A program made the translations under genes and the position numbers. A stretch of DNA of 64,000 bases from Escherichia coli (GTDB lineage Bacteria > Pseudomonadota > Gammaproteobacteria > Enterobacterales > Enterobacteriaceae). Below, in pieces: positions 1,019 to 43,085 of this stretch; the first letter of the stretch is position 1, and each line of letters opens with the position of its first letter. Under the pieces are notes generated by a model that worked only from the letters and a program-made list of their open reading frames with translations, searched no databases and was not told the origin of the DNA. The stretch is from the NCBI RefSeq assembly GCF_024223415.1, contig NZ_CP100500.1. One strand, given 5' to 3'.

Positions 1019-2296
1019 ATGAAAACCAAAGTTGCTGCTATTTATGGCAAGCGGGATGTCCGTCTGCGCGAATTTGAACTGCCAGAAATTACCGATAATG
1101 AATTACTGGTGAGTGTGATTTCTGACAGCGTCTGTTTATCCACCTGGAAAGCGGCGTTACTCGGTAGTGAACATAAACGCGTACCCGACGATTTAGAAAA
1201 TCATCCGGTCATTACCGGGCATGAATGTGCCGGGGTTATTGTCGAAGTGGGTAAAAATCTCACTGGCAAATATAAAAAAGGCCAGCGTTTTGTATTGCAA
1301 CCGGCGATGGGGTTACCAAGCGGATATTCAGCGGGCTACAGCTACGAATATTTTGGCGGCAATGCCACTTATATGATTATTCCCGAAATCGCCATTAATT
1401 TGGGCTGCGTATTACCGTATCACGGCTCTTATTTTGCTGCGGCGTCGCTGGCAGAGCCTATGTGCTGCATTATTGGTGCTTATCATGCCAATTATCACAC
1501 CACGCAATATGTTTATGAGCATCGCATGGGCGTCAAACCTGGCGGTAATATTGCACTGCTGGCGTGTGCAGGTCCGATGGGCATTGGCGCTATCGATTAC
1601 GCCATTAACGGCGGCATACAACCGTCGCGGGTGGTGGTGGTCGATATCGACGACAAACGTCTGGCGCAGGTACAGAAGCTGCTGCCGGTGGAACTGGCGG
1701 CCAGTAAAGGCATTGAGCTGGTGTATGTGAATACCAAAGGGATGAGCGATCCTGTCCAGATGCTGCGGGCGCTGACAGGAGATGCCGGGTTCGATGACAT
1801 TTTTGTTTATGCGGCGGTGCCTGCTGTCGTTGAGATGGCTGATGAATTACTGGCGGAAGATGGCTGTCTGAACTTCTTTGCCGGGCCGACGGATAAAAAC
1901 TTCAAAGTGCCGTTTAATTTCTACAACGTTCATTACAACAGCACGCACGTCGTCGGTACATCCGGCGGTTCAACGGGCGACATGAAAGAGGCGATTGCCC
2001 TTAGCGCCACTGGGCAGTTACAGCCGTCGTTTATGGTGACCCATATCGGTGGCCTGGATGCGGTGCCAGAAACCGTGCTCAATCTGCCGGATATCCCTGG
2101 CGGTAAAAAACTCATTTATAACGGCGTGACCATGCCGCTCACTGCCATTGCCGATTTTGCCGAAAAAGGCAAAACCGATCCGCTGTTTAAAGAGTTGGCG
2201 CGGCTGGTTGAGGAAACGCACGGCATCTGGAATGAACAGGCCGAGAAATATCTGCTGGCACAATTTGGCGTTGATATCGGGGAGGCCGCGCAATGA
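1019..2296 (+). CDS. yggP: putative zinc-binding alcohol/polyol dehydrogenase
   Basis: 425-aa ORF; synteny downstream of cmtA. Confidence 0.85.
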   Translation: MKTKVAAIYGKRDVRLREFELPEITDNELLVSVISDSVCLSTWKAALLGSEHKRVPDDLENHPVITGHECAGVIVEVGKNLTGKYKKGQRFVLQPAMGLPSGYSAGYSYEYFGGNATYMIIPEIAINLGCVLPYHGSYFAAASLAEPMCCIIGAYHANYHTTQYVYEHRMGVKPGGNIALLACAGPMGIGAIDYAINGGIQPSRVVVVDIDDKRLAQVQKLLPVELAASKGIELVYVNTKGMSDPVQMLRALTGDAGFDDIFVYAAVPAVVEMADELLAEDGCLNFFAGPTDKNFKVPFNFYNVHYNSTHVVGTSGGSTGDMKEAIALSATGQLQPSFMVTHIGGLDAVPETVLNLPDIPGGKKLIYNGVTMPLTAIADFAEKGKTDPLFKELARLVEETHGIWNEQAEKYLLAQFGVDIGEAAQ

Positions 2297-3258
2297 TGTC
2301 CCTGGCGTGGCCATTATTTCGCGTTACGGAACAGGCAGCGTTGGCTGCCTGGCCGCAAACCGGATGTGGCGACAAAAATAAAATTGATGGCCTGGCGGTC
2401 ACCGCGATGCGCCAGGCATTAAACGACGTCGCTTTTCGTGGACGAGTGGTTATCGGCGAAGGAGAAATTGACCATGCGCCGATGCTGTGGATTGGCGAAG
2501 ATGTGGGCAAAGGCGATGGACCAGAAGTCGATATCGCGGTTGATCCCATTGAAGGCACGCGGATGGTGGCGATGGGGCAGAGCAATGCGCTGGCGGTCAT
2601 GGCTTTCGCCCCTCGAGATAGCCTGTTACATGCGCCCGATATGTATATGAAAAAGCTGGTTGTTAATCGACTGGCTGCCGGGGCGATTGATCTGTCTTTG
2701 CCTCTGGCGGACAACTTGCGTAACGTGGCGCGGGCGTTAGGTAAACCGCTGGACAAGCTGCGCATGGTTACGCTGGATAAACCGCGTCTGAGTGCCGCGA
2801 TTGAGGAAGCAACACAGCTGGGGGTGAAAGTTTTTGCCCTGCCGGATGGCGATGTCGCCGCCAGCGTGCTGACCTGCTGGCAGGATAATCCTTACGATGT
2901 GATGTACACCATCGGCGGTGCGCCAGAAGGCGTGATTTCTGCCTGTGCCGTTAAAGCATTAGGCGGGGATATGCAGGCCGAGCTGATTGACTTTTGTCAG
3001 GCTAAAGGGGATTACACGGAAAATCGGCAGATTGCAGAGCAGGAGCGCAAGCGTTGCAAGGCAATGGGCGTTGACGTTAACCGTGTGTACTCGCTCGATG
3101 AACTGGTGAGGGGGAACGATATCCTCTTTAGCGCTACGGGCGTCACGGGCGGCGAGTTGGTGAACGGTATCCAACAGACGGCGAATGGGGTGCGGACGCA
3201 GACATTACTGATCGGCGGCGCGGACCAAACGTGTAATATAATAGACTCCCTGCATTGA
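2293..3258 (+). CDS. yggF: fructose-1,6-bisphosphatase class II (GlpX paralog)
   Basis: 321-aa ORF; 4-bp overlap with yggP stop; synteny. Confidence 0.85.
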   Translation: MMSLAWPLFRVTEQAALAAWPQTGCGDKNKIDGLAVTAMRQALNDVAFRGRVVIGEGEIDHAPMLWIGEDVGKGDGPEVDIAVDPIEGTRMVAMGQSNALAVMAFAPRDSLLHAPDMYMKKLVVNRLAAGAIDLSLPLADNLRNVARALGKPLDKLRMVTLDKPRLSAAIEEATQLGVKVFALPDGDVAASVLTCWQDNPYDVMYTIGGAPEGVISACAVKALGGDMQAELIDFCQAKGDYTENRQIAEQERKRCKAMGVDVNRVYSLDELVRGNDILFSATGVTGGELVNGIQQTANGVRTQTLLIGGADQTCNIIDSLH

Positions 3259-3279
3259 TGGTGATCTATCGGAAGACCA

Positions 3280-3789
3280 ATGGCGACGCTGACAGAAGAT
3301 GATGTGCTTGAGCAACTGGATGCACAGGACAATTTATTTTCATTTATGAAAACTGCGCATTCTATTTTGCTCCAGGGGATACGCCAGTTTCTGCCGTCGC
3401 TGTTTGTCGATAACGATGAAGAGATCGTCGAATATGCAGTGAAGCCGTTACTCGCCCAAAGCGGCCCGCTTGACGATATTGATGTCGCACTGCGTTTGAT
3501 TTATGCGCTGGGGAAAATGGATAAATGGCTGTACGCCGATATCACGCATTTTTCCCTGTTCTGGCATTACCTGAACGAACAGGATGAAGCGCCCGGATTT
3601 GCCGATGACATGACCTGGGATTTTATCAGCAACGTCAATAGCATAACCTGCAATGCGACGCTCTATGACGCGTTGAAAGCGATGAAGTTCGCCGATTTCG
3701 CCGTCTGGTCAGAGGCGCGTTTTAGCGGAATGGTCAAAACGGCGCTGACGCTGGCAGTAACGACCACCTTAAAGGAATTAACGCCGTGA
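3280..3789 (+). CDS. yggD: MtlR-like small protein (reported as fumarase E)
   Basis: 169-aa ORF; synteny. Confidence 0.8.
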   Translation: MATLTEDDVLEQLDAQDNLFSFMKTAHSILLQGIRQFLPSLFVDNDEEIVEYAVKPLLAQSGPLDDIDVALRLIYALGKMDKWLYADITHFSLFWHYLNEQDEAPGFADDMTWDFISNVNSITCNATLYDALKAMKFADFAVWSEARFSGMVKTALTLAVTTTLKELTP

Positions 3790-4499
3790 AAATTGAATTA
3801 ACGGTGAATGGGCTGAACGTGCAAGCGCAGTACCATGATGAAGAGATAGAACGCGTGCATAAACCGTTGCTGCGTATGCTGGCGGCCTTACAGACGGTAA
3901 ATCCGCAGCGCCGAACCGTGGTTTTTCTTTGCGCTCCGCCGGGGACGGGGAAATCTACCCTAACCACCTTCTGGGAATACCTCGCGCAACAAGACCCGGA
4001 ACTGCCCGCTATTCAGACGCTGCCGATGGATGGTTTTCACCATTACAATAGCTGGCTGGATGCGCATCAATTGCGCCCCTTCAAAGGCGCACCAGATACA
4101 TTCGATGTGGCGAAACTGGCGGAAAATCTGCGCCAGGTAGTGGAAGGGGATTGTACGTGGCCGCAATACGATCGACAAAAGCATGATCCGGTTGAAGATG
4201 CGTTGCACGTTACCGCACCACTCGTCATCGTCGAAGGAAACTGGTTGTTGCTGGACGACGAGAAGTGGTGCCAGCTTGCGCAATTTTGTGATTTCTCGAT
4301 CTTTATCAACGCGCCAGCTACTGCGTTGCGGGAACGACTGGTAGGGCGCAAGCTGGCGGGAGGGGTATCGCTGGCAGATGCAGAAGCTTTTTATGACCGT
4401 ACCGACGGGCCGAATGTTCGCCGGGTGCTGGAAGAGAGTCTGCCTGCAAATTTGACTTTAATGATGACCGCTACGGGTGAATATCGTCTGGTGGATTAA
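3786..4499 (+). CDS. yggC: P-loop nucleoside/pantothenate-kinase-like protein
   Basis: 237-aa ORF with Walker A motif PPGTGKST; overlaps yggD stop. Confidence 0.85.
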   Translation: MKIELTVNGLNVQAQYHDEEIERVHKPLLRMLAALQTVNPQRRTVVFLCAPPGTGKSTLTTFWEYLAQQDPELPAIQTLPMDGFHHYNSWLDAHQLRPFKGAPDTFDVAKLAENLRQVVEGDCTWPQYDRQKHDPVEDALHVTAPLVIVEGNWLLLDDEKWCQLAQFCDFSIFINAPATALRERLVGRKLAGGVSLADAEAFYDRTDGPNVRRVLEESLPANLTLMMTATGEYRLVD

Positions 4500-5148
4500 C
4501 GTTCCTGATTAGACCATCTTCCAGTCGCACCACACGAGAGAAATGACGCCGGGTAAATGCGGCGTCATGACTGATTGCTACGACGCTCGTGCCTCGCTGG
4601 CGGCACTTCTCCAGCCAGCTTTCAAACACGCTCAACCAATTTTCGTCAAAATCCCGACTCGGCTCGTCCAGCAGCAATAGTGGCGGAGAGAGTGCTTCCA
4701 GGCAGGCGACGGCGACCATCCGTCGCTGCGCACTATGCAGATCCAACGGGTGCGCGTTGGCAGTGTCTGCTAACTGACAACATTGCAGGGCAGCATGGGT
4801 ACGTTGAGTGATTTCATCCGCCGGGCATTTTTGCAGTTTCAAACCAAATGCGATCTCGTCAGCGACGGTGCTGTGAAAAAGTTGGTTTTCCGCTTCCTGA
4901 AACAGTACGCCAATCTTTGCCGCGCGCTGGCGGTTTTTCAGGTTTTTCATCGCCTGTTGTTGCAGCATAACCGTACCGGCTGTGGGCGTAAGAAGACCTG
5001 CCATTACTCGTAACAGCGTCGATTTCCCTGCGCCATTGTCGCCGGTCAGCGCCAACCATTCACCTTGTTTGAGTTGCAGAGAAATGTCGCAAAGACAATC
5101 CGTTGCCGCGCCAGGCCAGCGATAAGATATCTGATTTAACGTTAACAT
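4471..5148 (-). CDS. ECF/ABC transporter ATPase, second subunit, degenerate signature motif
   Basis: Walker A GDNGAGKST, Walker B LLLLDEP, H-loop ISHD, but LHSAQRR in place of LSGGQ; ATG at 5148 lies 1 nt upstream of the stop of the preceding ATPase gene (ATGnTAA); 3' end overlaps yggC convergently. Confidence 0.7.
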   Translation of the reverse strand: MLTLNQISYRWPGAATDCLCDISLQLKQGEWLALTGDNGAGKSTLLRVMAGLLTPTAGTVMLQQQAMKNLKNRQRAAKIGVLFQEAENQLFHSTVADEIAFGLKLQKCPADEITQRTHAALQCCQLADTANAHPLDLHSAQRRMVAVACLEALSPPLLLLDEPSRDFDENWLSVFESWLEKCRQRGTSVVAISHDAAFTRRHFSRVVRLEDGLIRNVNPPDDIHP

Positions 5149-5825
5149 AGTGGCTGGAGCGCTCCGTTTTGCAATTGCCACGCTTGCTGGCAGTAGTTCA
5201 GGAAAGGTGTGCGATGACGTTCAAAAAGAATAATCAGCGAACCACGTTCAAACGCCCAGTGTTGTAAGCGCTGCAACAGCATTTCGCTGGCCTGCGGCGT
5301 CAGGCGGCTAAAGGCTTCATCAAGAATTAATAGCTTTGGCTGCATCGCGATGGCGCAGGCGATGACCACGCGCTGTGTCTCTCCACCGGAGAGTGTTGCC
5401 GGGTGACGATGGCGCAACGGCTGGCACTCGGTCAGAGTCAGGGCGGCATCAATCCGAGCCATAATCTCTGCTTCAGCAAGACACAGATTTTCTGGCCCAA
5501 AGGCAACTTCTTCTTCCACGCTAAAGGTACAGCCGGAGAGCTGCAAATAGGGCGATTGCTGGACGAGCTGGATGGTGGCGGATTGTTCATTAAGCGGGAG
5601 ATGCCCAATGGGCGTACCGAGGAGCGTCCCCGTGCCTGTTATCTCTCCTGGCAGAAAGTCCGGATACCAGCCCGCCATCAGCTGTGCCAGCGTACTTTTG
5701 CCACTGCCGTTGTCACCAAAGATGGCGACCATCCCCGGTTTGACATAGTGAAAGTCATAACAGAACGGAGGATGTGTTGAGTGTGTCGGGCAATAACGGA
5801 ACTGTTCTAACGTAACCATATCCAC
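5142..5825 (-). CDS. ECF/ABC transporter ATPase, first subunit
   Basis: Walker A GDNGSGKST, canonical signature LSGGETQR, Walker B LLILDEA. Confidence 0.75.
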   Translation of the reverse strand: MDMVTLEQFRYCPTHSTHPPFCYDFHYVKPGMVAIFGDNGSGKSTLAQLMAGWYPDFLPGEITGTGTLLGTPIGHLPLNEQSATIQLVQQSPYLQLSGCTFSVEEEVAFGPENLCLAEAEIMARIDAALTLTECQPLRHRHPATLSGGETQRVVIACAIAMQPKLLILDEAFSRLTPQASEMLLQRLQHWAFERGSLIILFERHRTPFLNYCQQAWQLQNGALQPLC

Positions 5826-6514
5826 GCTCCGAATTCTGTCAGCATCAGCAAGATCATGGTGTAACGCGCTACGCGTTGTAGGGTGCTATCGGCTGGTGCC
5901 CACAACGTTGTTCGTCGATTGTGGATCCGAAATGCCCGCATATCCAGCGCCGCACCACGGACAGCAAGATCGTTTAGCGCATTGTGTGTTAGCGGAATAA
6001 TTAACGCGGGCATCGCACGTAAACGCTGATACCAGCCCTCATCCAGCGGCACGCCGCGGGCACGCTGCGCTTCATGAATAATCGCTAATTGCCGTTTTAA
6101 CTGCTCAACGACCAATAACGGCCCGGCAAACAGATAAGCGACGCCTGGCGGCAGGCGAGAAGCAAACAGAGCGCGGATAAAACATTGCACGGGGACGTAC
6201 TGCATCCACAACTGTGAGGTTGAAACAATCGCCAGAATCCGCAACCAGAGCGTAATAGCATGCGTCCAACGCTCCGGCGAACGCGGCGTGCCGCTTAGCC
6301 ATTCTGTTAGCCAGCCACCGTGTACCAGCCACAGCCCGGCTCCCAGCGAGAACATCAGCCAGACGACATATTTTGCCCGCCGCCGCGTGGCCTTTAGCGC
6401 AATAAGGCAGAAAAAGGTCGCCGCGCTATAGATCGGCAAAATGGTCTGCGCGGGCAGGATAAGCGTGGTGCAGGCCGCCAATGCCCACAGTGTTAATGAG
6501 GTAAATGGATGCAT
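5807..6514 (-). CDS. ECF transporter transmembrane T component (CbiQ/EcfT-like)
   Basis: Hydrophobic 235-aa protein with Ala-Arg-Gly motif (EAQRARGVP); start ATG directly abuts stop of upstream S gene (TAAATG). Confidence 0.65.
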   Translation of the reverse strand: MHPFTSLTLWALAACTTLILPAQTILPIYSAATFFCLIALKATRRRAKYVVWLMFSLGAGLWLVHGGWLTEWLSGTPRSPERWTHAITLWLRILAIVSTSQLWMQYVPVQCFIRALFASRLPPGVAYLFAGPLLVVEQLKRQLAIIHEAQRARGVPLDEGWYQRLRAMPALIIPLTHNALNDLAVRGAALDMRAFRIHNRRTTLWAPADSTLQRVARYTMILLMLTEFGAWIWLR

Positions 6515-32749: not shown

Positions 32750-33086
32750 TTATATTTTCTAATGTCATGAATTTTTGATTTAGTGATTTTTGACATTTTT
32801 TCAGCTCTTAATATTGCCTTATTCAAATTAACTTTCTCATTGCATCATCTTTGTATAGAAACTGGTGTGTTTTTTGGTTTTTTATTCTGTTGCGATTTTT
32901 GCGTTTTCTAACCATAAGCTAATGTGATGATCAATTTTACCTTATGGTTAACAGTCTGTTTCGGTGGTAAGTTCAGGCAAAAGAGAACGATTGCGTTGGG
33001 GACCGGGAGTGGCTCCGATGCTGGGTTTCGTGGTGATAATTTCACCATGAAAAAGTTGTCAGCCCCGCTTATTCAATGAGGACAAG
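32750..33086 (+). promoter_or_regulatory. gcvTHP control region (GcvA/Lrp/PurR/CRP-regulated promoter)
   Basis: Long AT-rich region upstream of gcvT; individual sites not resolved. Confidence 0.5.
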
Positions 33087-34181
33087 ATGGCACAACAGAC
33101 TCCTTTGTACGAACAACATACGCTTTGCGGCGCTCGCATGGTGGATTTCCACGGCTGGATGATGCCGCTGCATTACGGTTCGCAAATCGACGAACATCAC
33201 GCGGTACGTACCGACGCCGGAATGTTTGATGTGTCACATATGACCATCGTCGATCTTCGCGGCAGCCGCACCCGGGAGTTTCTGCGTTATCTGCTGGCGA
33301 ACGATGTGGCTAAGCTCACCAAAAGCGGCAAAGCCCTTTACTCGGGGATGTTGAATGCCTCTGGTGGTGTGATAGATGACCTCATCGTCTACTACTTTAC
33401 TGAAGATTTCTTCCGCCTCGTTGTTAACTCCGCCACCCGCGAAAAAGACCTCTCCTGGATTACCCAACACGCTGAACCTTTCGGCATCGAAATTACCGTT
33501 CGTGATGACCTTTCCATGATTGCCGTACAAGGGCCGAATGCGCAGGCAAAAGCTGCCACACTGTTTAATGACGCCCAGCGTCAGGCGGTGGAAGGGATGA
33601 AACCGTTCTTTGGCGTGCAGGCGGGCGATCTGTTTATTGCCACCACTGGTTATACCGGTGAAGCGGGCTACGAAATTGCGCTGCCCAATGAAAAAGCGGC
33701 GGATTTCTGGCGCGCGCTGGTGGAAGCGGGCGTTAAGCCATGCGGCTTGGGCGCGCGTGACACGCTGCGTCTGGAAGCGGGTATGAATCTTTATAGTCAG
33801 GAGATGGACGAAACCATCTCTCCTTTAGCCGCCAATATGGGCTGGACTATCGCCTGGGAACCGGCAGATCGTGACTTTATCGGTCGTGAAGCTCTGGAAG
33901 CGCAGCGTGAACATGGCACAGAAAAACTGGTTGGTCTGGTGATGACCGAAAAAGGCGTGCTGCGTAATGAACTGCCGGTACGTTTTACCGATGCGCAGGG
34001 CAACCAGCATGAAGGCATTATCACCAGCGGGACTTTCTCCCCGACGCTGGGTTACAGCATTGCGCTGGCGCGCGTGCCGGAAGGTATTGGTGAAACAGCG
34101 ATTGTGCAAATTCGCAACCGTGAAATGCCGGTTAAAGTGACGAAACCTGTTTTTGTGCGTAACGGCAAAGCCGTCGCGTGA
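33087..34181 (+). CDS. gcvT: glycine cleavage T protein (aminomethyltransferase)
   Basis: 364 aa, [11 protein letters not shown]. Confidence 0.95.
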
Positions 34182-34204
34182 TTTACTTTTTTGGAGATTG
34201 ATTG

Positions 34205-34594
34205 ATGAGCAACGTACCAGCAGAACTGAAATACAGCAAAGAACACGAATGGCTGCGTAAAGAAGCCGACGGCACTTACACCGTTGGCATCACCGAACAC
34301 GCCCAGGAGCTGTTAGGCGATATGGTGTTTGTTGACCTGCCGGAAGTAGGCGCAACGGTTAGCGCGGGCGATGACTGCGCGGTTGCTGAATCAGTAAAAG
34401 CGGCGTCAGACATTTATGCGCCAGTAAGCGGTGAAATCGTGGCGGTAAACGACGCACTGAGCGATTCCCCGGAACTGGTGAACAGCGAACCGTATGCAGG
34501 TGGCTGGATCTTTAAAATCAAAGCCAGCGATGAAAGCGAACTGGAATCACTGCTGGATGCGACCGCATACGAAGCATTGTTAGAAGACGAGTAA
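34205..34594 (+). CDS. gcvH: glycine cleavage H protein
   Basis: Start ATG 34205 (track ORF begins at upstream TTG), 129 aa. Confidence 0.95.
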
Positions 34595-34712
34595 CGGCTT
34601 TATTCCTCTTCTGCGGGAGAGGATCAGGGTGAGGAAAATTTATGCCTCACCCTCACTCTCTTCGCAAGGAGAGAGGTTCACAATTCACTGCACGTTTCAG
34701 GAACCATCGCTC

Positions 34713-37586
34713 ATGACACAGACGTTAAGCCAGCTTGAAAACCGCGGCGCTTTTATTGAACGCCATATCGGACCGGACGCCGCGCAACAGCAAGAAATGC
34801 TGAATGCCGTTGGCGCGCAATCGTTAAACGCGCTGACCGGCCAGATTGTACCGAAAGATATTCAGCTTGCGACCCCGCCGCAGGTTGGCGCACCGGCGAC
34901 CGAATACGCCGCGCTGGCGGAACTCAAGGCTATTGCCAGTCGCAATAAACGCTTCACGTCTTACATCGGCATGGGTTACACCGCCGTGCAGTTACCGCCG
35001 GTTATCCTGCGTAACATGCTGGAAAATCCGGGCTGGTATACCGCGTATACTCCGTATCAACCTGAAGTCTCGCAGGGCCGCCTTGAGGCACTGCTCAATT
35101 TCCAGCAGGTAACGCTGGATTTAACCGGGCTGGATATGGCCTCTGCTTCTCTTCTTGACGAAGCCACCGCTGCCGCCGAAGCAATGGCGATGGCGAAACG
35201 CGTCAGCAAACTGAAAAATGCCAACCGCTTCTTCGTGGCTTCCGATGTGCATCCGCAAACGCTGGATGTGGTCCGTACTCGTGCCGAAACCTTTGGTTTT
35301 GAAGTGATTGTCGATGATGCGCAAAAAGTGCTCGACCATCAGGACGTCTTCGGCGTGCTGTTACAGCAGGTTGGCACTACCGGTGAAATTCACGACTACA
35401 CTGCGCTTATCAGCGAACTGAAATCACGCAAAATTGTGGTCAGCGTTGCCGCTGATATTATGGCGCTGGTGCTGTTAACTGCGCCGGGTAAACAGGGCGC
35501 GGATATTGTTTTTGGTTCGGCGCAACGCTTTGGCGTACCGATGGGTTACGGTGGCCCCCACGCGGCATTCTTTGCGGCGAAAGACGAATACAAACGCTCA
35601 ATGCCAGGCCGTATTATCGGTGTATCGAAGGATGCAGCTGGCAATACCGCGCTGCGCATGGCGATGCAGACTCGCGAGCAACATATTCGTCGTGAGAAAG
35701 CGAACTCCAACATTTGTACTTCCCAGGTGCTGCTGGCAAACATTGCCAGTCTGTATGCCGTTTACCACGGTCCGGTTGGCCTGAAACGTATCGCAAACCG
35801 CATTCACCGTCTGACCGATATCCTGGCAGTGGGCCTGCAACAAAAAGGTCTGAAACTGCGCCATGCGCACTATTTCGACACTTTGTGTGTGGAAGTAGCC
35901 GACAAAGCGGGCGTACTGGCGCGTGCCGAAGCGGCTGAAATCAACCTGCGTAGCGATATTCTGAACGCGGTGGGGATCACCCTTGATGAAACCACCACGC
36001 GTGAAAACGTGATGCAGCTTTTCAGCGTGCTGCTGGGGGATAATCACGGGCTGGACATCGACACGCTGGACAAAGACGTGGCTCACGACAGCCGCTCTAT
36101 CCAGCCTGCGATGCTGCGCGACGACGAAATCCTCACCCATCCGGTGTTTAATCGCTACCACAGCGAAACCGAAATGATGCGCTATATGCACTCGCTGGAG
36201 CGTAAAGATCTGGCGCTGAATCAGGCGATGATCCCGCTGGGTTCCTGCACCATGAAATTGAACGCCGCCGCCGAGATGATCCCAATCACCTGGCCGGAAT
36301 TTGCCGAACTGCATCCGTTCTGCCCGCCGGAGCAGGCCGAAGGTTATCAGCAGATGATTGCGCAGCTGGCTGACTGGCTGGTGAAACTGACCGGTTACGA
36401 CGCCGTTTGTATGCAGCCGAACTCTGGCGCACAGGGCGAATACGCGGGCCTGCTGGCGATTCGTCATTATCATGAAAGCCGCAACGAAGGGCATCGCGAT
36501 ATCTGCCTGATCCCGGCTTCTGCGCACGGCACTAACCCTGCTTCTGCACATATGGCAGGAATGCAGGTGGTGGTTGTGGCATGTGATAAAAACGGCAACA
36601 TCGATCTGGCTGATCTGCGCGCGAAAGCGGAACAGGCGGGCGATAACCTCTCCTGTATCATGGTGACCTATCCTTCCACCCACGGCGTGTATGAAGAAAC
36701 GATCCGTGAAGTGTGTGAAGTCGTGCATCAGTTCGGCGGTCAGGTTTACCTTGATGGCGCGAACATGAACGCCCAGGTTGGCATCACCTCGCCGGGCTTT
36801 ATTGGTGCGGACGTTTCACACCTTAACCTACATAAAACTTTCTGCATTCCGCACGGCGGTGGTGGGCCGGGTATGGGACCGATCGGTGTGAAAGCGCATC
36901 TGGCTCCGTTTGTACCGGGTCATAGCGTGGTGCAAATCGAAGGCATGTTAACCCGTCAGGGCGCGGTTTCTGCGGCACCGTTCGGTAGCGCCTCTATCCT
37001 GCCAATCAGCTGGATGTACATCCGCATGATGGGCGCAGAAGGGCTGAAAAAAGCAAGCCAGGTGGCAATCCTCAACGCCAACTATATTGCCAGCCGCCTG
37101 CAGGATGCCTTCCCGGTGCTGTATACCGGTCGCGACGGTCGCGTGGCGCACGAATGTATTCTCGATATTCGCCCGCTGAAAGAAGAAACCGGCATCAGCG
37201 AGCTGGATATTGCCAAGCGCCTGATCGACTACGGTTTCCACGCGCCGACGATGTCGTTCCCGGTGGCGGGTACGCTGATGGTTGAACCGACTGAATCTGA
37301 AAGCAAAGTGGAACTGGATCGCTTTATCGACGCGATGCTGGCTATCCGCGCAGAAATTGATCAGGTGAAAGCCGGTGTCTGGCCGCTGGAAGATAACCCG
37401 CTGGTGAACGCGCCGCACATTCAGAGCGAACTGGTCGCCGAGTGGGCGCATCCGTACAGCCGTGAAGTTGCGGTATTCCCGGCAGGCGTGGCAGACAAAT
37501 ACTGGCCGACAGTGAAACGTCTGGATGATGTTTACGGCGACCGTAACCTGTTCTGCTCCTGCGTACCGATTAGCGAATACCAGTAA
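34713..37586 (+). CDS. gcvP: glycine dehydrogenase (decarboxylating), P protein
   Basis: Start [22 protein letters not shown], 957 aa. Confidence 0.95.
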
Positions 37587-37608
37587 TTCACTGATTCGAC
37601 TATCTTCT

Positions 37609-37631
37609 AAAGGCGCTTCGGCGCCTTTTTA
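37609..37631 (+). terminator. gcvTHP rho-independent terminator
   Basis: aggcgc-ttcg-gcgcct hairpin plus T-run. Confidence 0.75.
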
Positions 37632-37704
37632 GCTTGTTAATAAAGTGCGCTTTGTGTGTCGGATGAAGCGTAAATATAAAATCCTGGAGTTCAATATATG
37701 ACAG

Positions 37705-37740
37705 GAGCGCCAGGCCTGATGAGCGGGGCGCATCAGGCAC
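37705..37740. repeat. REP-like palindrome between convergent gcvP and bglA
   Basis: gccaggcctgatgagcggggcgcatcaggc. Confidence 0.5.
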
Positions 37741-37749
37741 ATCGGGTAA

Positions 37750-39210
<1,461 letters not shown>

Positions 39211-39227
39211 TTACAGGAAATAGTACC

Positions 39228-39539
39228 ATGCAGCCAAACGACATCACTTTTTTTCAACGTTTCCAGGATGACATTCTGGCTGGGCGTAAAACCATCACCA
39301 TCCGCGACGAGTCTGAATCGCACTTCAAAACGGGTGATGTGCTTCGTGTCGGGCGTTTTGAAGATGACGGTTATTTTTGCACGATTGAAGTCACCGCAAC
39401 CTCAACCGTAACGCTGGATACGCTGACGGAAAAACATGCAGAGCAGGAAAATATGACCCTGACTGAACTGAAAAAGGTCATTGCCGACATCTATCCCGGT
39501 CAGACACAGTTTTATGTGATTGAATTTAAATGTCTTTAA
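39228..39539 (+). CDS. yqfB: ASCH-domain protein
   Basis: 103 aa; synteny. Confidence 0.85.
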
Positions 39540-39699
39540 ATTGAACTCACGCCTGTTAGTTGAAATTTCGCATTTAATTTCATGATTTTTAGGGGATTAG
39601 TCTCAAATCAGAATTTATTTTAGCTAACAGGTGTTCACTGGAACTATTCTCAGTTACGCTGGAGAGGTATACATGTGCGTGTACGTTTCTCCGGAGTAA

Positions 39700-40362
<663 letters not shown>

Positions 40363-40371
40363 TGGGTATGC

Positions 40372-40397
40372 CTTTGTAGGCCTGATAAGACGCGCCA
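40372..40397. repeat. left half of a REP palindromic unit split by the IS
   Basis: gcctttgtaggcctgataagacgcgcca ending in GCCA at the IS boundary. Confidence 0.7.
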
Positions 40398-40927
40398 TGA
40401 ACTGCACCCCAAATGTTGGACATAATCTGACATCTGAAGGTGCAGTTTATGAAACATTCATTTGAAGTAAAACTTGCCGCTGTAAATCATTACCTGGCCG
40501 GTCATGCAGGCATCATTTCTACGGCAAAACTCTTTCAACTTTCTCACACCAGCCTCTCACACTGGATTAATCTTTTTCTTCTTCACGGTCCTCAGGCACT
40601 GGATTGCAGACACAAGCGTAGCTATTCTCCTGAAGATAAACTTTGCGTGGTTCTTTATGCTCTCGGGCATTCTGAGTCTCTACCCCGGGTAGCTGCCCGG
40701 TTTAACATTCCCAGCCACAACATGGTTAAAAACTGGATAAAAGGCTACCGCAAATCTGGTAATGAGGCCTTTATCAGGCGCAGGAAGGAGAAAAGCATGA
40801 CCCGTTCTGATGATACCCATGAAAACGAGGCAAACATGACGCCGGAAGAGATGAAGAATGAGCTGCGTTATCTTCGCGCAGAAAATGCATATCTGAAAGC
40901 CATGCAGGAGCATCTCCTGGAAAAAAA

Positions 40928-41829
<902 letters not shown>

Positions 41830-41870
41830 GCCAGCGTCGCATCAGGCGATAAATGCCTGATGCGACACAG
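41830..41870. repeat. right half of the REP palindromic unit split by the IS
   Basis: gccagcgtcgcatcaggcgataaatgcctgatgcgac. Confidence 0.7.
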
Positions 41871-41874
41871 AGAT

Positions 41875-42855
41875 TTACTCTTCGAGCGAATACGGCAGCG
41901 GCTCGATATGCAATGTATTCGCATCGTCACGCACGCGGAAGATGCTGTCCGGTTCCATATCGTTATTCATGACGACCTGTACCACGACCTGACCATCTTC
42001 CAGTTTTACCGCAGCCAGCACCGTACCGGTGCGACGCCAGTTCTCGCCCATTTTCAGCTCTAAATCTTCACCAGCTTCCGGCAGTCGGCTGGCACTACCT
42101 GTCAGCAACCAGAGCGCGCGTTTGTTGGCACCACGGAATTTTGCTCGCGCCACCATCTCTTGTCCGGTATAGCAGCCTTTCTTAAAGCTGATACCGCCCA
42201 GCGCCTGGAGATTGGTCGCCTGTGGAATAAACTGCCCGCTGTTGGCGGCATCAATCACCGGGAAACCCGCTTCAATGTTTAATGCCAGCCACTGTTGGCT
42301 ATTGTTCAGTTCCGCTTCACCGCGCAGTTTATCGGTCAGCATATTGGCAGTAGCTTCATCGGTTACGATCAGGAAACGTTCTGCCGGGTGTTCAAACCAT
42401 AGCAAAGTGGTCGCGCCTTCTTTAACTACCTGTTTTTCTTTCGAAGGCAGTTCACTAAAGAGATTGGCCAGTGCGGCGCGCGCCTGAAAACCGGCAACAC
42501 CAAGCAGCACACGCTCGTCGTCTGGCGCGATGGTCACTTTAGAGAATACCGCATATTTTTTCAGTTCAGTCAGCTGCGGTTCACGCACGCTGCGCCGTTC
42601 AATCCACGCAAAGCCATCGCCGTCGCGGAACAGACGTAAATTGCTCCACATTTTACCTTTGGCGTCGCAATGGGCGGCCAGCAGGTGCTGATCTACTGTC
42701 ATCTGGCTGACGTCTGCTGTCACCTGACCCTGCATATATTTTTCGCTGTCCGCGCCAGTAATGGTGGCAAGCGCCCAGTCATCAAGCGTCATCAGTGTCA
42801 GTGGCAAACGGGCAGAAGCCGTAGGCTGACGGGGAGGAAAAGGTGTAAAAGCCAT
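41875..42855 (-). CDS. ygfZ: folate-binding Fe-S cluster repair protein
   Basis: 326 aa; synteny. Confidence 0.85.
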
Positions 42856-43085
42856 AATAGAGTCCTGAGTTGCTTAACGGCGTATTAATAACTAATGGTA
42901 AAAGAGCTATGAGGCAATGCAAGTGCTTTCACTACGCGATCTGTGCCTTCTGCGAGGCGACTTCCAAAAAAATGAAGCCCTTGAATTGTTGTGAATTAAT
43001 TTCGCGATCGCGATTGTGTTTACTGATATTCCCGTAAAAGAAGTCGAAAAACACGTTACAATAGCGGGGTACTGGATTTTCGTGA

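Follow-up and report, generated by a model that had tools for sequence, protein, structure and literature searches.

The genes gcvP (glycine decarboxylase) and bglA (6-phospho-beta-glucosidase A) stand end to end in the 64,000-nt stretch of Escherichia coli DNA analysed here (contig NZ_CP100500.1; hereafter the window), and a sequence-only reading of the stretch had remarked that ygfF, which lies between them in K-12, appears to be missing, either through a strain-specific deletion or because the site is ancestrally empty. Which of these, if either, accounts for the short spacer is the question that we address here. The K-12 gene order given there was correct: MG1655 carries bglA (b2901, + strand), ygfF (b2902, − strand, 744 bp) and gcvP (b2903, − strand), and K-12 is thus not itself without a gene at this site. 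YgfF acts as a glucose 1-dehydrogenase in vitro (PMC10645960) and falls in the SDR63C subgroup (PMC12506659). A full-text literature search on ygfF returned no paper on a presence/absence polymorphism at the site.

Alignment of the K-12 proteins to the window placed GcvP residues 1-957 at 34713-37583 (99.5% aa identity), followed by a TAA stop codon at 37584-37586, and BglA residues 1-479 at 39189-37753 (98.7% aa identity), with a stop codon at 37750-37752 (TTA on the + strand); the RefSeq annotation of identical genomes concurs with both calls. The 163-bp spacer that remains, 37587-37749, is as devoid of genes as had been claimed. Its only ORFs are two mechanical ones on the minus strand, of 46 and 48 aa, none being longer than 48 aa, and the RefSeq records show zero annotated features inside it. 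A tblastn search with K-12 YgfF against the whole 64-kb window yielded no match (best E = 5.1), and neither the gcvP-bglA interval nor the rest of the window contains an ORF of ~247 aa matching NF007273 or adh_short; for reference, K-12 YgfF scores 531.6 bits on NF007273. The spacer contains neither a ygfF coding remnant nor a clear deletion scar. The slot is the same as that of the K-12 ygfF locus (b2902; NF007273 SDR family oxidoreductase), downstream of gcvP and convergent with bglA, but the gene is wholly absent from it, and the strain would be expected to lack YgfF activity. We considered whether the spacer might instead hide an RNA or a peptide and rejected this, as Rfam gave no match to it at E ≤ 1, no promoter-like site was found in it, both short ORFs are unannotated everywhere, and the two spacer haplotypes described below differ by ~13%, with indels. 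The features of the interval are collected in Table 1.

Table 1. Features of the gcvP-bglA interval and the flanking genes, with positions in the window
Feature	Position	Strand	Evidence
gcvP (glycine decarboxylase; last gene of gcvTHP)	34713..37586	+	K-12 GcvP alignment, RefSeq annotation
gcvP intrinsic-terminator-like hairpin and T run	37609..37633	+	inverted repeat, fold, conservation
Unique non-REP stretch common to the transporter allele	37634..37656		identity to E. coli LD67-1
y-type REP remnant (TGTCGGATGAAGCGTAA)	37657..37674	+	alignment with LD67-1, MOD1-EC7003, E. whittamii and SCPM-O-B-8794; local match 13/15
BIME-type linker, core TTCAATATAT at 37690-37699	37675..37713		collinear match, alignment
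REP-like palindrome (z-type, degenerate)	37714..37738	+	inverted repeat, pattern search, fold
Palindrome right arm and 11-nt spacer	37729..37749		orthology with the stretch between ygfF and bglA in the E1V33 (Escherichia sp.) ygfF allele
bglA (6-phospho-beta-glucosidase A), convergent with gcvP	37750..39189	−	K-12 BglA alignment, RefSeq annotation

We searched 5,426 complete E. coli genomes for the contents of this slot. The ygfF gene matched 3,057 genomes, 3,053 of them near full-length (~56%), and the empty spacer, with window positions 37630-37749 as the query, matched 2,372 genomes, 2,349 near full-length (~43%). A third content, a transporter gene, matched 18 genomes, 17 at full length (~0.3%). 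Since the near-full-length classes total 5,419 of the 5,426 genomes, the three slot states are mutually exclusive, and the complementary counts imply that, at the sensitivity of megablast, the empty-spacer genomes do not carry ygfF elsewhere. The gene was never plasmid-borne and was present in at most two copies per genome. The empty spacer itself occurs as two haplotypes, one in 423 genomes that are at least 95% identical to the window and the other in 1,949 genomes at 80-90% identity; upon alignment the two were ~13% apart with the same layout and the same junctions. The second haplotype includes O157:H7 and APEC O2:K1:H4, and the empty-spacer genomes together come from a wide range of hosts, countries and serotypes, O157:H7, O145 and APEC O2:K1:H4 among them. 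By phylogroup, ygfF is carried by K-12 (A) and by O111:H8 and O121 (B1), and the empty allele by O157:H7 (E) and O2:K1:H4 ST95 (B2). B2 and E strains branch early in E. coli.

The empty spacer is a frequent, old and lineage-wide allele, not a private deletion. A recent loss of ygfF confined to this strain or its clone, the first of the two origins suggested for the spacer, would account for the absence of the gene relative to K-12, and the alignments to K-12 and other E. coli genomes upheld that absence; that it is peculiar to the strain did not survive the comparison. Such a deletion is refuted by the ~2,350 of 5,426 complete genomes that have the same spacer in two diverged haplotypes, and excision of ygfF from a K-12-like allele would leave a remainder that differs from the window spacer, most of which is homologous to the transporter allele instead. 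We assign a private deletion negligible probability.

The transporter allele is built differently. In E. whittamii, Escherichia sp. MOD1-EC7003 and E. coli SCPM-O-B-8794, the slot is filled by a 298-aa ORF with a signal peptide together with ~450 bp of spacer. The ORF matches Pfam PF13557 (Phenol_MetA_deg; E = 6e-13) and is named "transporter" in RefSeq, an outer-membrane protein. The copy in E. coli Z0117EC0005 is intact, that in E. coli LD67-1 is interrupted by an in-frame TAG, and ygfF is absent alongside the transporter gene in both strains. The available E. albertii locus ends short of the ORF, its spacer aligns with the region upstream of the transporter gene, and the E. albertii slot probably holds that gene as well. 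The 90% protein cluster of the transporter has 2,745 members, of which the named ones are nearly all from Salmonella and one is from E. albertii. We rejected E. coli WB61 as an intermediate toward the empty allele, as its deletion is a separate one, extending from the gcvP 3' end into the transporter gene. At 2493-2617 of the WB61 locus, the gcvP 3' end is fused to the last 117 bp of the transporter gene, both being annotated as pseudogenes; if the assembly is correct, this is a strain without an intact gcvP.

When we compared the transporter gene of a Salmonella enterica assembly (GCA_053164955.1, 4546-5941 of its locus) with that of MOD1-EC7003, the two were 96% identical at the nucleotide level, against 90-91% for the adjoining 900 bp of gcvP and bglA in the same pair. 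The whole gcvP of the Salmonella assembly is ~87% identical to that of the E. coli window, and the E. whittamii transporter copy is 90% identical. The 96% identity of the transporter gene between flanks of 87-91% looks like a recombination tract, that is, a cassette exchanged between genera.

Both structures that had been noticed in the window spacer, a terminator and a REP-like palindrome, are present there. The first is a hairpin of the form AAAGGCGC-TTCG-GCGCCTTT, followed by TT, at 37609-37630; it begins 22 nt past the gcvP stop codon and comprises an 8-bp stem and a 4-nt loop, with GCGCCTTTTT on the 3' side. Its folding energy is −12.7 kcal/mol (z = −2.9), and the hairpin with its T run presents the arrangement expected of a putative rho-independent terminator, in which a G+C-rich stem-loop past a stop codon leads directly into a T run. 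It went unflagged by a simple consensus terminator scanner, probably because the maximal stem takes in three of the five T's. The hairpin is invariant or nearly so across the alignments, which include all three E. coli allele types and the other Escherichia species aligned, and it is most likely the gcvTHP terminator.

The second structure is a palindrome of the form GCCTGATGAGC-GGG-GCGCATCAGGC, with 11-nt arms (91% complementary, one mismatch) around a 3-nt loop. It is extragenic, lying 11 nt past the bglA stop codon, and its pattern has a single match in the window, with 0 expected by chance in 64 kb. The minus strand folds with −16.1 kcal/mol and is without a T run. We observed 23/28 identities between the palindrome and a canonical z-REP of E1V33, and 19-20/24 with the REP that holds the equivalent position in E. 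whittamii and E. albertii. Because a generic z-REP fits the palindrome no worse than do its positional counterparts, we rejected it as proof of orthology with the hairpin found downstream of ygfF, and only the non-REP segments count as evidence of orthology in what follows.

REPs have been defined as imperfect palindromes of 30-40 nt with a conserved GTAG 5' of the foot, and a pair of REPs in inverse orientation with a linker constitutes a BIME (PMC3333891). Like the REP/BIME elements of E. coli described there, the element in the spacer is extragenic, lies between convergent gene ends, can form a hairpin, and combines what is left of a y-like REP with a linker and, in inverted orientation, a z-like palindrome that ends in CGCATCAGGCA. 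E. whittamii and MOD1-EC7003 have fuller copies with which the y-REP remnant, the linker core and the palindrome are collinear, and relative to which the y-REP of the window is truncated, with a 15-bp gap against the fuller copy in the transporter allele; the linker matched the MOD1-EC7003 and Salmonella transporter alleles collinearly at 14/15 positions (p = 0.002-0.004). Unlike a typical REP/BIME, the element is degenerate: the palindrome measures 25 nt, or ~31 nt if the conserved flanks are counted, against the 30-40 nt of the definition, the y-REP is ~15 bp short, and the conserved 5' GTAG is absent from the palindrome foot, which reads CCAG-GCCTGATG on the + strand and ATGT-GCCTGATG on the − strand. 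For comparison, an intact REP in the same window (40377-40397 / 41830-41846) reads GTAG-GCCTGATAAG. Judged from these departures, the element appears to be a decayed BIME relic and not an active RAYT substrate, for which "REP-like" is the apt term. In bglA transcripts, this hairpin probably serves as a 3' end or stabiliser, and the reverse side of the gcvP hairpin, which would be encountered next, may act as a bidirectional terminator.

The intact REP used for comparison is itself split by a copy of IS1397 (IS3 family; 1,432 bp) at 40398-41829, between trhA and ygfZ. The insertion sequence sits in the loop of this canonical z-REP, with GTAGGCCTGATAAGACGCGCCA before it and GCCAGCGTCGCATCAGGCG after it, and the 4 bp GCCA occur on either side of it, at 40394-40397 and 41830-41833. 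IS1397 is known to target REPs (PMC1525189), and the insertion in the window fits this behaviour. The copy is absent in K-12 and Combat11I9. It is present in NCTC10444, KV7, GPEC1446, NCTC9112, SCU-316 and O78 strain 3, six genomes with 100% identity to the window across 33000-43000.

With the repeat-derived blocks set apart, the spacer can be compared with its counterparts piece by piece. It shares the gcvP terminator with K-12, retains partial similarity up to ~37650 (window ATAAAGTGC, K-12 ACAAAGTAC) and is unrelated to K-12 past that point. From 37587 to ~37740, it is collinear in alignment with the gcvP-proximal spacer of the transporter allele, and 37634-37656 is identical to the transporter allele of E. 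coli LD67-1 through TTTAGCTTGTTAATAAAGTGCGCTTTGT. Unique sequence is limited to 37587-37656 and the 11-nt spacer next to bglA; the REP and linker blocks are members of a repeat family that numbers hundreds of copies, and some of their likeness to the transporter allele could thus reflect common family membership and not orthology. The tail of the spacer aligns in register with the E1V33 ygfF allele (18/21 identities in the window, 18/20 in the B2-type empty allele; shuffle p ≤ 0.0005), and its similarity to the transporter-allele tail is not significant (shuffle p = 0.09-0.96). By these alignments the spacer is a mosaic, its first ~150 bp resembling the transporter allele and its last ~20 nt the ygfF allele. 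A mosaic of this kind would be the expected residue of losing both genes, or of a crossover between two single-gene alleles at their common REP. No flanking repeats at the variable segment survived the shuffle test in any of the alignments.

The same comparison bears on a simpler derivation, in which the empty allele would have arisen directly from the transporter allele by one ~1.3-kb deletion between the short direct repeats GCAAC and GTAAC, located after the REP and before the bglA stop codon. The collinearity of the first ~150 bp would follow from such a deletion, and the last 13 nt of the spacer bear, by eye, a loose resemblance to the final 13 nt of that allele. That resemblance is no better than that of shuffled sequence, however, whereas the ygfF allele matches the tail in register at the p value given above, and we regard a single deletion from the transporter allele as highly improbable.

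Outgroup loci were collected by scanning genome contigs with a GcvP C-terminal codon pattern, which gave 15 loci; E. fergusonii, E. marmotae, E. ruysiae and reference Salmonella and Citrobacter genomes lie outside this sample, and the Salmonella and Citrobacter loci were reached through the transporter protein. A ygfF gene directly follows gcvP in Pluralibacter, [Erwinia] mediterraneensis and Winslowiella arboricola (63-78% aa identity to K-12 YgfF), and the order gcvP-ygfF-bglA is found in Pantoea anthophila and Escherichia sp. E1V33. The order gcvP-transporter-bglA occurs in the Salmonella enterica assembly, E. whittamii and Escherichia sp. MOD1-EC7003. Two loci have the order gcvP-ygfF-transporter-bglA; the cluster that contains their transporter is named Citrobacter (C. 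freundii, C. werkmanii and others), and it is by this protein-cluster name that we assign them to Citrobacter. Given the presence of ygfF and of the transporter gene in the slot across enterobacteria, both appear to be long-standing residents of the interval. An ancestral empty site, in the sense of one that was never occupied, is accordingly an unlikely description of the window, as ygfF or the transporter gene fills the slot in related taxa.

Several of these loci have peculiarities of their own. The two-gene loci (3850-5903 and 1961-4014 of Logan assemblies) contain an extra RpiR-type regulator gene (HTH_6/SIS) between bglA and yqfB. The unrelated Enterobacteriaceae MAG UBA2655 has an independent empty site of 75 bp. 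In the uncultured Enterobacteriaceae MAG Lapin-020 bin56, the C-terminal 47 aa of a YgfF homologue alone (aa 201-247, 74% identity) are encoded ~500 bp past gcvP, at ~3600-3741, which suggests that ygfF was independently truncated there. The gcvP-ygfF spacer of E1V33 (~1677-2080 of its locus) contains three copies of the gcvP terminator hairpin, with a BIME after each of the first two, and it is therefore a tandem-repeat spacer that has expanded to ~400 bp.

Since both genes have long been resident in relatives, the empty allele is most likely derived by loss. We consider it likely that the 163-bp spacer represents a common and old empty allele of a multi-allelic slot, produced when an ancestor of the lineages now carrying it lost the resident gene or genes. 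In the simplest history, an ancestor would have had both ygfF and the transporter gene, and differential loss would have left ygfF alone, the transporter gene alone, or neither. The empty allele would have a single origin, and it may have spread later by homologous recombination through the conserved flanks. What would remain in the window is the gcvTHP terminator hairpin, the decayed BIME as in the transporter allele, and the 11-nt bglA-proximal spacer as in the ygfF allele.

The ygfF alleles of E. coli are themselves diverse. The E21 type, present in ~15 genomes, is ~91-94% identical to the K-12 type at the nucleotide level (up to about 6-9% apart), and the alleles also differ strongly in their gcvP-ygfF spacers. 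This divergence exceeds what would be expected for E. coli core genes and suggests either an old polymorphism or introgression. The K-12 spacer, at 5903-6168 of the K-12 locus, contains a G-rich palindromic element of ~110 bp (CCCCTCGCCCCTTTGGGGAGAGGGTTAGGGTGAGGGG...) that is absent from the E21-type allele, in which ygfF begins 59 bp past gcvP; putative G-quadruplex/hairpin sites have been listed for the gcvP-ygfF interval (entries 32 and 33 in PMC5100583). E. coli HH97 was rejected as an informative case of ygfF loss, as only the last 47 bp of ygfF align by BLAST; at 960-1500 of its locus, a garbled G+C-rich stretch stands in place of the gene, most likely an assembly or polishing error.

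These alleles are also relevant to a different chronology, in which the ygfF-less state would be ancestral for E. coli as a species and ygfF in phylogroups A and B1 would have been regained through homologous recombination from a different Escherichia or enterobacterial lineage that had retained it. E. whittamii and MOD1-EC7003 are without ygfF at the site, and the partial E. albertii locus shows none. The two deep empty haplotypes ~13% apart would suit an old ygfF-less state, the unusual divergence of the ygfF alleles (up to ~9% nt) and their very different spacers hint at introgression, and the transporter cassette that is 96% identical between Salmonella and Escherichia illustrates exchange between lineages at this interval. 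The distribution over the phylogroups, with the empty allele in early-branching B2 and E and ygfF in A and B1, also fits a ygfF-less ancestor followed by re-import. Deeper in time, however, the slot is occupied, with ygfF present in the Citrobacter-assigned loci, Pantoea and others, so this chronology would only shift the timing of the loss, and the 11-nt bglA-proximal spacer that the empty allele shares in register with the E1V33 ygfF allele fits descent in situ. We regard re-acquisition as unlikely and retain loss in an ancestor of the empty-allele lineages as the preferred explanation.

In its organisation, the locus resembles the replacement slots of the E. coli pan-genome, with core flanks (gcvTHP and bglA), alternative contents that vary by lineage, mutually exclusive alleles and no mobile-element signatures: neither integrase or transposase genes, terminal repeats, a target-site duplication nor a tRNA attachment site was found in the ygfF, transporter or empty alleles. 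It differs from the usual replacement slot in a small way, in that two resident genes appear to have been differentially lost and the Citrobacter-assigned loci keep both. We also entertained the stronger proposal that gcvP-bglA is a replacement locus maintained by recombination (ygfF, transporter, both or neither), with cassettes moving among Escherichia and to and from Salmonella via the flanks and with the proportions of 56, 43 and 0.3% shaped by selection rather than neutral loss. We consider this speculative and rather improbable; if it is true, selection might act, for example, on the surface-exposed outer-membrane protein or on glucose oxidation.

We conclude that the ygfF-less site is ordinary gene-content variation, already visible in RefSeq annotation. 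The K-12 y-gene ygfF, whose product is a glucose 1-dehydrogenase in vitro, is dispensable, as it is missing from nearly half of the sequenced E. coli genomes, and this is worth bearing in mind when K-12 annotation or metabolic models are extrapolated beyond K-12. With its three states, the slot might be used as a simple marker of lineage. Differential loss of two adjacent genes would make the interval a textbook case of the diversification of a core-flanked slot, one that leaves the current understanding of such slots unchallenged.
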